Of a stretch of DNA of 64,000 nt, positions 42,827 to 51,943 are shown one piece after another (within the stretch, counting starts at the first letter, position 1; each line of letters opens with the position of its first letter). Source of the stretch: Dictyostelium discoideum (Eukaryota). Position numbers and translations under genes: made by a program. The notes under the pieces were generated by a model. The model did not search any database, was not told the DNA's origin, and saw only the letters and a list, made by a program, of their open reading frames with translations. The DNA lies in assembly GCA_000004695.1 (NCBI GenBank), contig CM000151.3, forward strand, positions 4,256,001 through 4,320,000, read 5' to 3'.

Positions 42827-44600
42827 ATGAGGCTTTACTATTATAAATTAACAATTTTAATTTTCACAATTATTATGATTACACTTTCAACTTTTTTAAT
42901 AATAGCTTTAAATAATAATAATAATAAAAATAATTATAATAAAAATGATGATAATATTAAAAATATGGTTTCAAAAAAGAGTATAGATTTAATTACTCCA
43001 ATAAATAAATTGGTGATTGTTGAAAAAGATGTAGTAAAAGAAGTAATAAAAGAAGTCTGTAATAATAATTTAATTAATAATAATTTAATAAATAATAATT
43101 TAATTAGTAATAATAATAATAATAATAATAATAATAATAATAATAATAATAATAATAATAATAATAATAATAATAATAATAATAATAATAATAATAATAA
43201 TAATAATAATAATAATAATAATAATAATAATAATAATAATAATAATGATGATGATGATAATAATAATAATGATGATGATAATAATAGTGAAATTAAGAAA
43301 AATAATAATTTGAGAGAAAAAGATAATTTATATGGATTTAAAGATAAACAATCAATGATTAATTATTATCTTACATATCAAAATTATTATGATATTGAAG
43401 ATTTTAAAAATGTACAATATGTAAATAAAAGTAAATATGGTTTATCAAATTACCAAATTCCAGAAGTTACAAAAATTATTAGTGATTTTAAACCTACAAT
43501 AAAGGAAACTGAAATGTCAATTGAAAAATTAAATGAGAATTATAATATTGGAATTGATGGTAAACCAAACATTTATTTAGACATTGATAAAGAAAAACAA
43601 TATAATCAAGATATTTATAAATTATCTTTAAAAATCGTTAAATCAAGATTATGGTCTGATTTTTATTCAAATTATTGGAGAGATAAAAACTTTCAAAAAT
43701 ATTCAATTGATAATGGTTTGACTCCATTTGAAGCACCAAAACTTTCTTTACCATTAAATACATCAACACCACTTTTAACAACTCCATATATATTTATACA
43801 TTTACCAAAAGTTGGTGGAAGTTCAATGATTATCCATTTTCAAAAACATTTTAGAGCAGGAGTACACCAACAATGGGCTTATCCAGGTAAGTAATAAAAA
43901 ATAAAAAAAGAAAAAAATACAAAAATACAAACACCTAAACTTCAATTTAATATTAATTAATCATTTTAAAAAAATTACAAAAGATTCAAAAGATATTATA
44001 AAGGTACAAAATGCCCATAATTTAGTATTGGGTCATTTTGGATATGGACTTCATTATGTTTTAAAAGAAGATTCTCAAAAAACTTATAATTATCTTACAA
44101 TGTTAAGAGATCCAGTTGATAGAGTTATAAGTCATTACTTTTATCATAAATCAACTTCATTCGATGAAGAACATATCCCTGCTCGTGATAATAACCTTGA
44201 ACAGTGGTTAGAAATATCACCTCGAGGTACAAATGAAATGACTAGACATTTATCAGGTATTACTGTAATTGAAGAGTTTTTACCAACTAATGAAACATTT
44301 AATATGGCAATGTACAATTTAAGAAAAATGAAATTCGTTGGAATTACTGAAAGATTTGAAGAAACATTAGCACTCCTTAAATTTTATACAGGTTTTGATA
44401 ATCCTGTTGTTTCTGATAAACAGAATGTTGGCCATTTAAAGCCATATGGTATTACACCTGAAATAATTCAAAAAATTAAAGAAAAAAATTGGATGGATAT
44501 TTTATTATATGAAGAAGCTTTAAAAATGTTTGAAAGACAAATCAATATAGTTGGTAGAGTTAATTTTGAAAATCAATTAAATAAAATATTAAAAAAATAA
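42827..44600 (+). CDS. Type II membrane sulfotransferase, Sulfotransfer_2 / heparan-sulfate-6-O-sulfotransferase-like (copy 1 of 4). Exons 42827..43886, 43984..44600
   Basis: N-terminal signal-anchor (LTILIFTIIMITLSTFLIIAL), then the VVKEVIKEVC motif and a poly-N stem. The catalytic domain has the 5'-PSB motif TPYIFIHLPKVGGSSM, the 3'-PB motif LRDPVDRVISHYFYH, and C-terminal NWMDILLYEEALKMFERQ. GTAAGT donor in phase 1. Confidence 0.8.
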
Positions 44601-45385
44601 AATCAATTGTATGTAAAAATAAATAAAATAATAATAAAATAATAATTAAGTATAAAATAATAATCAAAATTTTGGTAAATAAAAATTAAAAAAAAAAAAA
44701 AAATTTTAAAATAAATAATTTCAAATCATAAAAATAATCAATTAATAACTATATTTTGTTTCCCAGTCCTTATTTTTCAAGAAAACAAAAAAAATAAAAA
44801 AAAAAGTTTTTGTAAATTTCTTCCAAAGATATTTTTTTTTTATTTTTTTTTTTAGTATTTTCATTATGATAATGAAGAGTTTTGCTACGCAAACATGCAC
44901 GATTCTAAGAATTAAAAAAAAAAAAAACACGAAAAATCTAAAAAAAAAAACAAAAATGTTAAAAAATCTAAAAAAAGAAATTTTGATGGGATGGTTTGTT
45001 TGTTCTTACCAATGGGTAATTTGATTTTTATTTATTTATTTATTTATTTATTTTTTTATTTAATTGAAAAAAAAAAATCAAAAAGAAATTGGTAAATTTT
45101 GGGCAATTCCCAAATTTTTAATCATTCTCTTTTGTTAAACCACATTCAAATTTCAGACCACTTTTTTTTATTTAATTTATTTTTATTTATTTATTTATTT
45201 ATTTTTTTTATTTGTTTATATATCATACTGTTGTTAACATTAATCAATTTGGAATTTATGTTCTCTTTAAATTTTTTTTTTTTTTTTTTTTTTTTTGATA
45301 TAAAATTTGTGAATATATAATTAGTCCCAAGTTAAAAAATTAAAAAAATAAAACCAAATCAATAGAAAACAAAATTTTAAAAGTG

Positions 45386-50109: not shown

Positions 50110-50432
50110 TTAATTATTTAAAAAATTATTTAAAAACTTTTTAAAAAAAAAAAAAAAAAAATAATAATATTTCTTGTGTTCGGTTAATCATATGTCATTT
50201 TAATTTTTTATTTTTTTATTTTTATTTTAATCCAAAATTACTTTTATTTTTAGATTTTTTTTATTCGAGTTTTTTTTTTTTTTTTTTTTTTTTTTTTTCA
50301 GAATAATCGTTTGTTTGCGAACGAAATGTCAAAAAAAAAAATAATTTTAAAAGTAGAAATAATAACAAATTAAATTAATATCTTTTATTTGTTTTATTTT
50401 AAAATAAAAAAAAAAAAAAAAAAAAAAATAGA

Positions 50433-51943
50433 ATGATAAAAATAAAAGATTTAAGGTTTATAATTTTATCAATTATAATATTAAGTGGATTTACAACATT
50501 TTACTATATAAATTTATATGGTACTATTAATGGAATAAAAAGTGATTTATTAAAACCAAATAATAAATTGGAAATTGTTGAAAAAGAAATTAATAAAAAA
50601 GTTGTATTTGAAAATTGTAAAAATGAAACAGATGAATCAAATTTTTATAATTATTATCAATTTAATGATAAAGAATCAATGATTAATTATTTCCTTACCT
50701 ATCAAAATTATTATTATATTGAAGAGTATAAAGATAAACAATTTAGTAATAGTACAAAATATAATTTATCAAAATATAATTATCCAGTGTTAACTAAACT
50801 TTATAGTAATTTCACACCAACTATCAAAGAAATTGATAATGAAATTGATTTAATTAAAAAGAAATATGATAATGGTGAAATTGTGGAACCCAAAATAAAT
50901 TCAATAACTTCTTCAACTACTTATAGATCTATCAGAGCACCAAAAAAAAAAACAAATAAAAAAATTACCTTTGAAAATGATGAAACCTATCATAGTTTAG
51001 AATTAAAAAAATTTAGATCAAGAGTATGGTCAGATTTTTATTTAAATTATTGGAAAGATAAATATTTCTTATTATTCACCTTAGAAAATGGTTTATCATT
51101 TAGATCACCAAGACTTTGTTTACCATTGGATACTTCAAAACCACTTTTAACAACACCTTATTTATTTTTACATATTCCAAAATGTGGTGGTACAACAATG
51201 TATACTCACTTTTCAAAACATTTTAAAGTTGGTACATTACAACAATGGGCTCATCCAAGTATGTATTTAAATATATGAAAAAAAAAAAAAAAAAAAATTA
51301 ATTATTAACTCTTTTTTTTTTTTCAGACCCTGCGGAATATAAAAAAGTTCAAGATTCTAAAAATTTTATTATTGGTCATTTTGAAATGGGAATACATTTA
51401 ATTTTAAATGAAAAAGAACAAAAAACTTATAATTATATGACAATGTTAAGAGATCCAGTTGAAAGAGTTATAAGTAATTATTTCTATCATAAACATAGTC
51501 CAGGTGATCCACAACATATATTAGCTCGTGATAATGTAATTGAAAATTGGATAATTATATCACCACGTGGTAATAATGAAATTACTAGAGTTTTATCAGG
51601 TATAACCATTAAAGAAGAACCAGTACCATCCAATGATACCTTTAATATGGCATTATATCATTTACGTTCAATGAAATTCGTTGGTATTACAGAGAAATAT
51701 TCAGAGTCATTAGCATTATTAAAGTTTTACACTGGTTTAGAAAATCCAAATGTTGCTGATAAATTAAAAAATTCAAAATTTAGACCATATGGTATAACAC
51801 CTGCAATCATTGAAAAAATTAAAAAAAGAAATTGGATGGATATTTTATTATATGAAGAAGCTTTAAAAATGTTTGAAAGACAAATTAATATTGTTGGTAG
51901 AGATAATTTTGAAAAACAATTAACAAAAAATTATAGACAATAG
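50433..51943 (+). CDS. Type II membrane sulfotransferase, HS6ST-like (copy 4 of 4, shortest stem). Exons 50433..51258, 51327..51943
   Basis: Signal-anchor FIILSIIILSGFTTFYYINL. Motifs TPYLFLHIPKCGGTTM and LRDPVERVISNYFYH. GTATGT donor and TTTTCAG acceptor in phase 1. C-terminal NWMDILLYEEALKMFERQ is identical to the other copies. Confidence 0.8.

Follow-up and report, generated by a model that had tools for sequence, protein, structure and literature searches.

Two questions are raised by a group of four related genes in Dictyostelium discoideum: what do their proteins do, and do the copies evolve apart or in concert? The genes, here named S1 to S4 in array order, lie on the + strand within positions 42827-51943 of a 64-kb stretch of the strain AX4 genome (∼22% G+C), the window to which all positions refer. 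It is highly probable that the array consists of four functional paralogues, predicted to be Golgi-type 3'-phosphoadenosine-5'-phosphosulfate (PAPS)-dependent carbohydrate sulfotransferases, and that S1 and S2 undergo gene conversion. Three short segments of S1 and S2, referred to below as islands, escape this homogenisation.

Gene Structure and Protein Layout

Gene models built from six-frame open reading frames (ORFs) and the DNA confirm an earlier interpretation of the letters alone (the sequence-only reading), which had placed four same-strand paralogues in ∼9 kb. Each gene has two exons separated by a GT..AG intron. The intron lies in phase 1 at a homologous codon in all four, after the conserved QQWxxP codon.

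Only one stretch of each protein is hydrophobic; it lies within aa 8-28 and is preceded by Lys or Arg residues (1.8-2.9 on the Kyte-Doolittle scale in a 19-residue window). A sole N-terminal hydrophobic segment behind Lys/Arg residues fits a type II signal anchor, and hydropathy thus bears out for all four copies the anchor proposed by the sequence-only reading. The predicted layout would leave the N terminus inside and the catalytic domain in the lumen, in the order anchor, stem motif, variable spacers, a module of ∼80 residues, and Sulfotransfer_2 domain. The same reading gave every copy a conserved stem motif and a poly-Asn/Ser stem. The motif, (V/I)V(L)E(R/K)(E/D)..KEVIKEVC, is found in S1-S3, whereas S4 has a degenerate form, LEIVEKEINKKVVFENC; the Asn- or Asn/Ser-rich spacers are confined to S1 (poly-Asn) and S2 (two inserts), since the S3 insert is Gln-rich and S4 has none.

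The ∼80-residue module between stem and catalytic domain is conserved in S1-S4 (YGFKDKQSMINYFLTYQNYY...FxPTIxE; aa ∼70-150 of S4, window ∼50640-50880), with the consensus F.D..S..NYFLTY.NYY.IE.Y...KY..SKY..P.L....S.FTPTI.E. It has no Pfam match. AlphaFold assigns it a predicted local distance difference test (pLDDT) score of 80-94 in the full-length S4 model, and it recurs in DDB_G0270564, an unlinked fifth paralogue, and partly in other dictyostelids.

Assignment to the Sulfotransferases

The type II, PAPS-type Sulfotransfer_2 identity suggested from sequence is upheld by profile searches. Against the curated gathering threshold of PF03567 (Sulfotransfer_2), 22 bits, the catalytic domains alone score 28.0 (S1), 33.1 (S2), 25.7 (S3), and 34.5 bits (S4), a range of 25.7-34.5 bits that is above the cut-off throughout. 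Among the full-length proteins, S4 alone exceeds it and S1-S3 give weak matches or none, because low-complexity regions lower the scores. Pfam matches of the catalytic domains to the Gal-3-O-sulfotransferases are weaker than those to Sulfotransfer_2.

The residues expected to bind the cofactor are in place. The 5'-phosphosulfate binding (5'-PSB) loop, H[LI][PA]K[VSC]GG[ST][ST], is present in all four proteins and aligns with FLHIQKTGGTT of HS6ST3; its Lys is invariant or nearly so in family alignments of 45 and 24 sequences. The narrower pattern first proposed, HLPK(V/C)GG(S/T)(S/T)M, does not accommodate S3, where HIAKSGGSSM is kept in all five genomes compared, although the loop with its conserved Lys holds for every copy. 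The 3'-phosphate binding (3'-PB) motif LRDPV[DE]RVIS is found in all four as originally claimed. Its Arg, Pro, and Ser are invariant across the family, and it aligns with MLRDPVSRYLS of HS6ST3. Two conserved His residues in GHFxxGxH are both candidates for the catalytic base: GH aligns with the GH of HS2ST and GxH with the GLH of HS6ST3.

Structural comparison agrees with these motifs. A profile built from 45 family sequences matches zebrafish HS6ST3 (5t03) over the entire domain (E=9.6e-33) and HS2ST less strongly (3e-15). The PSB loop, RDPVxRxxS, the GH and GLH histidines, and a C-terminal LYExA helix are collinear. Similarly, the AlphaFold2 model of the catalytic domain (pLDDT 90.5) has the sulfotransferase alpha/beta fold.

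Conservation and Selective Constraint

The array was compared in seven assemblies of four named taxa: the AX4 window; three further assemblies labelled D. discoideum, GCA_054883475.1 (L008), GCA_054859355.1 (L001), and GCA_054859385.1 (L007); D. cf. discoideum (L005); D. citrinum (L003); and D. firmibasis (L004). In all seven, the four genes keep their order and their two flanking genes, and every copy retains an intact catalytic ORF. L008 is 99.5% identical to the window over 10.5 kb. L001 and L007 are ∼91% identical to AX4 at 42001-52500, intergenic DNA included. D. cf. discoideum diverges by a similar amount, so the name D. discoideum may cover deep lineages or cryptic species. Between genomes, protein length ranges from 524 to 642 aa for S1 and from 606 to 751 aa for S2, but only from 498 to 511 aa for S4 in the six assemblies other than AX4; the large spread in S1 and S2 arises because their low-complexity spacers vary.

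The ratio of nonsynonymous to synonymous substitution rates (dN/dS) between orthologues is ∼0.2-0.3 for each of S1-S4, and 0.18-0.41 for nearly all pairs. These sequence comparisons indicate purifying selection on all four copies. In the S1/S2 islands dN/dS is 0.43-1.11 over few sites, and positive selection was rejected there because the ratio is not clearly above 1. The diversifying array envisaged by the sequence-only reading therefore finds no evidence in these values.

One or more copies could instead be decaying pseudogenes that look intact through conversion from a functional neighbour, and conversion is indeed able to rescue sequence in this way. This explanation is improbable, because S3 and S4, although unconverted, have ORFs that are intact in each of the seven assemblies and dN/dS of 0.21-0.30 when set against the more distant genomes. 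Three irregularities could be cited for decay, and with two further points they are what weighs against an array of functional enzymes with exchange between S1 and S2. First, the S4 tail (51925-51943) reads TTAACAAAAAATT in AX4 and TTAAAAAAAATT in L008, L007, and L001. One extra base causes a +1 frameshift, by which AX4 S4 ends ...TKNYRQ* at 480 aa rather than ...KKIIDNSPKI... at 501-511 aa. The change affects just the low-complexity tail, past the catalytic domain, and reflects either a mutation specific to AX4 or an error in the reference. Second, S2 is annotated in L001 as two genes of 271 aa and 350 aa (4625-7042), with a frame change in the poly-Asn region that is either a real frameshift or a homopolymer/low-complexity assembly error. 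Third, the PSB loop of S3 is non-canonical, with Ala for Pro, although this variant is conserved rather than degenerate. Furthermore, selective maintenance of the islands is argued from their persistence, a dN/dS of 0.4-1.1 being no proof of positive selection. Finally, knockout of kil1 leaves no glycoprotein with a mannose-6-sulphate epitope detectable by antibody (PMC3534706). This loss argues that the array genes are not the obvious makers of that epitope in growing cells, and that they may use a wholly different acceptor.

Predicted Function

S1-S4 are intact, constrained, membrane-anchored proteins of the sulfotransferase fold with cofactor-binding residues in place, for which we infer a role as Golgi carbohydrate sulfotransferases. 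Their putative acceptors would probably be mannose residues of N-glycans. Dictyostelium N-glycans contain mannose-6-sulphate (PMC5758549, PMC11795075) and carry one to four sulphates at different mannose positions, which vary by species (PMC11795075). Kil1 is the only characterised Dictyostelium sulfotransferase (PMC3534706), and its gene is DDB_G0267630 (PMC4291096). Whether an array member might be a sulfotransferase already studied genetically was left as a question by the sequence-only reading; none of the four is kil1, as the gene identifiers differ (DDB_G0274515 for S4 and DDB_G0274677 for S3). Compared with Kil1, the array enzymes may modify different positions or different glycans, or work at another stage of the life cycle. 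The four genes and their unlinked sister DDB_G0270564 are concrete knock-out candidates for N-glycan sulphates that have no assigned enzyme.

A different function would follow if the four were true heparan-sulfate 6-O-sulfotransferase orthologues making a glycosaminoglycan-like polymer. HS6ST3 is the best solved match both by sequence profile and by structure, and at the level of the fold the label HS6ST-like stands. At the level of sequence it does not: identity to HS6ST3 is just 17-20%, a single-sequence search gives E=0.005 and 19.5 bits, and bacterial family-2 sulfotransferases score ∼100 bits at 30-34% identity. The latter are the nearest relatives outside the dictyostelids in a database of 5.8 billion sequences. 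Membership in the metazoan HS6ST family was rejected on these similarities, and orthology of this kind is very unlikely. Dictyostelids are not known to make heparan sulfate.

Sequence Exchange between S1 and S2

One line of evidence for exchange is a stretch of 287 nucleotides (nt) that is identical in S1 and S2, synonymous sites included. No run of this length appeared in 100000 shuffles of the 57 S1/S2 differences. The sequence-only reading had described roughly the first 300 nt of the two 3' exons as identical; the identity is exact over 287 nt, and it starts 44 nt inside exon 2.

Trees of separate segments differ. Over positions 91-270 of the exon 2 alignment, the S1 and S2 sequences of one species are joined with 100% bootstrap; this holds for AX4, D. 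citrinum, and D. firmibasis alike. For exon 1 positions 136-243 together with exon 2 positions 271-450, sequences group by position in the array (S1 clade 94%, S2 clade 65%), D. firmibasis excepted because its conversion reaches further. Synonymous divergence (dS) gives the same contrast. In the catalytic domain outside the islands, dS is 0.03-0.19 between S1 and S2 within species and 0.37-0.61 between orthologues (AX4 versus D. citrinum or D. firmibasis). Within the islands the corresponding values are 0.39-0.69 (0.21 in D. firmibasis) and 0.37-0.55. This difference points to homogenisation over most of the S1/S2 catalytic domain, recurring independently in several lineages.

The direction of the latest event can be read from nine diagnostic sites, 147-258 nt past GHF, at which S2 of AX4 has the state shared by all S1 sequences, unlike S2 of L001 and L007. 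The pattern indicates that S1 overwrote S2 in the AX4 lineage, and the copied stretch measures between 112 and 287 nt. More generally, S1 and S2 exchange sequence repeatedly by non-reciprocal gene conversion across most of the catalytic domain. Concerted evolution is taken here as paralogues closer within a genome than orthologues, a bounded tract, and flanks that keep orthology, and the S1/S2 pair shows all three. Conversion between copies 1 and 2, as first suspected, is thus supported by the tract, the segment trees, dS, and the diagnostic sites.

Could the identity reflect a very recent duplication, with no conversion between old paralogues? In the protein tree S1 and S2 are sister genes (100% bootstrap), and they are similar over ∼1 kb, a span that takes in some of the intron and ∼40 nt of the 3' flank. 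However, both genes occupy the same positions in all seven assemblies, the island segments group S1 with S1 (94%) and S2 with S2 across species, and paralogue dS in the islands (0.39-0.69) equals or exceeds orthologue dS. We regard so recent an origin as most improbable.

Equally little probability attaches to a constraint at the nucleotide level, in which codon bias, or a regulatory or RNA element embedded in the tract, would keep it identical without recombination. Codon usage is extreme (AAT 0.93, GAT 0.97, AGA 0.95), and such a constraint suits both a 56-nt C-terminal block and the patch encoding HLRS (see below), which are nearly invariant across species and in DDB_G0270564. In the tract itself, however, AX4 differs from its orthologues in the 91%-identical strains at 7-17 sites. 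Furthermore, S1 and S2 of those strains differ from each other at 12-16 tract sites, synonymous ones included, and S3 and S4 are ∼25% different in the tract region.

An assembly collapse or consensus artefact of the AX4 reference, a concern raised by the sequence-only reading itself, can practically be dismissed: although the genome is AT-rich and repeat-rich, the paralogues are tandem, and the S1-S3 models lack an exact look-up match, the tract is shorter than a Sanger read, independent assembly L008 carries it exactly at both loci between copy-specific flanks, species-wise homogenisation also occurs in D. citrinum and D. firmibasis, and the failed look-up of S3 is explained by a differing annotated 3' end.

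Islands That Escape Conversion

The three islands keep separate S1 and S2 sequences in D. discoideum, in D. cf. discoideum, and in D. citrinum; in D. firmibasis island 3 is homogenised. In the second island the sequence-only reading saw copy 2 switch to copy 3/4-like sequence (MYHLRS versus MYNLRK in copy 1). The comparison reverses this view. HLRS is the ancestral state: nearly the same nucleotides encode it in DDB_G0270564 and, throughout the five genomes compared, in S2, S3, and S4. NLR[KN] is an old difference specific to S1, kept in all five genomes. The patch in S2 is not a borrowing from S3 or S4, and it marks the 3' edge of the tract.

Through these islands S1 and S2 may differ in acceptor specificity, and the islands flag residues for specificity swaps. 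A more far-reaching proposal is that the array and DDB_G0270564 are the missing position-specific mannose sulfotransferases for the multiply sulphated N-glycans that vary by species, that S1 and S2 combine a converted core with three conversion-resistant islands setting acceptor specificity or regiospecificity, and that the family derives from a horizontally acquired bacterial family-2 enzyme later given a signal anchor and stem. As a whole this proposal is speculative and rather unlikely.

S3, S4, and the C-terminal Block

Concerted evolution had been claimed for the whole array. S3 and S4 form orthologous clades in both segments tested (74-99.5% bootstrap), so conversion is limited to S1 and S2; by these trees S3 and S4 evolve as ordinary orthologues. 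The sole hint of their involvement comes from D. firmibasis, where S3 exon 2 (L004 ∼8405-9025) encodes FNMAM...FEE with S2-type nucleotides and all other S3 sequences have F[LV]MAL...F[TS]E. This patch may be a short S2-to-S3 conversion.

All four copies also share a block of exactly 56 nt near the C terminus, as the sequence-only reading reported. The identity is real, but as evidence of conversion it was rejected: the paralogues are unsaturated, the block hardly varies among the five genomes compared, and DDB_G0270564, which is unlinked and intronless, has the last 41 nt of the block in identical form. Four-copy identity would have a probability of ∼4e-6 under fully independent codon choice. 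Conservation between species and the match in DDB_G0270564 make conversion unnecessary to explain this ancestral sequence, to which codon bias contributes.

Origin of the Array

In a protein tree, S1+S2, S3, S4, the array, and the array with DDB_G0270564 are clades, each with 100% bootstrap. The all-dictyostelid clade likewise has 100% bootstrap; within it, the one or two copies of each other dictyostelid fall outside the array and DDB_G0270564. The array would have arisen by tandem duplication in an ancestor of the D. discoideum/citrinum/firmibasis clade, with DDB_G0270564 as sister.

Annotation and Features of the Locus

The array is flanked upstream by an Oxysterol_BP gene and downstream by a Pex19 gene on the minus strand. 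The S3 and S4 loci lie on a contig of 8.48 Mb. A tblastn search of the 64-kb window found no further copy, and a scan of the same window found no tRNA genes. The translated S4 model is exactly XP_644088.1 (DDB_G0274515), and the first 571 aa of the S3 model match RefSeq XP_644087.1 (DDB_G0274677); both genes are annotated merely as hypothetical. Look-up in a sequence collection gave no exact AX4 protein entry for the S1 and S2 models, whose lengths of 558 and 674 aa recur in the separate annotation of the near-identical strain L008. Literature searches on DDB_G0274515, DDB_G0270564, DDB_G0274677, and neighbouring identifiers returned no papers.

At the 3' end of S3 (50049-50400), RefSeq DDB_G0274677 (599 aa) departs from the conserved model after aa 571. 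The conserved C terminus IVGRDNFKNQLNKIQIENK, which is encoded by an ORF to 50109 and is found in five genomes, is swapped for a tail of unrelated sequence, IIFFIRNNRLFANEMSKKK..., apparently by way of an additional splice to a site further downstream. The annotated 3' end is probably wrong, and the exact look-up of the S3 model failed because of it. The S3 intron (49261-49486) is mostly an (AAT)n microsatellite of ∼180 nt that is in frame and prolongs the exon 1 ORF as poly-Ile. Its length varies by strain, and annotated S3 proteins also vary, from 569 to 628 aa. Corrections are therefore due at the S3 3' end, at the frameshifted S4 tail, and in naming, with sulfotransferase in place of hypothetical.

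Table 1. Features of the S1-S4 array and of the compared S1/S2 segments (window positions)
Feature	Position	Strand	Description
S1 exon 1	42827-43886	+	Gene: 558 aa, intron 97 nt. Anchor (aa 10-28), stem motif LVIVEKDVVKEVIKEVC, long poly-Asn, ∼80-aa module, start of catalytic domain with 5'-PSB HLPKVGGSSM; donor GTAAGT at 43887
S1 exon 2	43984-44600	+	GHFGYGLH catalytic-His region, 3'-PB LRDPVDRVIS, C-terminal helices, stop codon
S2 exon 1	45386-46787	+	Gene: 674 aa, intron 120 nt. Signal anchor (aa 8-26), stem motif, two Asn/Ser-rich inserts, 5'-PSB HLPKVGGTSM
S2 exon 2	46908-47530	+	PF03567 33.1 bits; PF06990 29.8 bits
S3 exon 1	48114-49260	+	Gene: 589 aa, intron 226 nt. Anchor (aa 9-27), stem motif, Gln-rich insert, variant 5'-PSB HIAKSGGSSM
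S3 exon 2	49487-50109	+	Contiguous ORF; C terminus conserved in five genomes; PF03567 25.7 bits
S4 exon 1	50433-51258	+	Gene: 480 aa, intron 68 nt. Anchor (aa 10-28), degenerate stem motif, no low-complexity insert, 5'-PSB HIPKCGGTTM
S4 exon 2	51327-51943	+	PF03567 30.8-34.5 bits
Conversion tract, S1 copy (donor)	44028-44314	+	287 nt identical to S2; encodes GHF/GLH motif, 3'-PB, and next loops
Conversion tract, S2 copy (recipient)	46952-47238	+	Overwritten in the AX4 lineage
Island 1	S1 43826-43867; S2 46727-46768	+	MIIHFQKHFRAGVH (S1), MQYHFKKQFNKGSI (S2); 18/42 nt differ between paralogues, orthologues conserved
Island 2	S1 44301-44330; S2 47225-47254	+	MYNLRK (S1), MYHLRS (S2, ancestral); 3' limit of the tract in each of the five compared genomes
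Island 3	S1 44391-44474; S2 47315-47404	+	GFDNPVVSDKQNVGHLKPYGITPEIIQ (S1); S2 segment with 6-nt insertion
56-nt block	S1 44487-44542; S2 47417-47472; S3 49990-50045; S4 51830-51885	+	NWMDILLYEEALKMFERQI; exact in all four

Comparison with Known Systems

The array members are annotated but uncharacterised, their mode of evolution is textbook, and their general interest is modest; S1 and S2 offer a worked example of recurrent conversion bounded by retained islands.

Among known sulfotransferases, HS6ST3 (5t03) and HS2ST (3f5f/4ndz) share the catalytic fold, to which the Dictyostelium proteins add a stem motif, low-complexity spacers, and the ∼80-aa module N-terminally. The bacterial family-2 proteins (from Pyrinomonadaceae, Leptolyngbyaceae, Bacillus, Brevibacillus, Planctomycetota, and others) are 25-34% identical over ∼75-80% of the catalytic domain, with E down to 8e-24, and share the PF03567/PF06990 double signature with the array. 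Unlike the array proteins they are short (∼250-330 aa) and soluble, and have no signal anchor, stem, or N-terminal module. Within D. discoideum, the single-copy DDB_G0270564 (460 aa; L006 5001-6383, on another contig) shares the architecture of the array, is ∼55% identical in the catalytic domain, and forms the sister clade to the whole array. It differs in being intronless and unlinked and in having no long low-complexity spacers.

The globin, opsin, and major histocompatibility complex (MHC) gene pairs are the classic cases of conversion between tandem paralogues with islands that escape homogenisation. Nothing unusual is seen in the conversion mechanism here, and tandem arrays with local conversion are common. 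Like those gene pairs, S1 and S2 have non-reciprocal tracts of ∼0.1-1 kb, conversion in several lineages, and position-specific segments that are kept.

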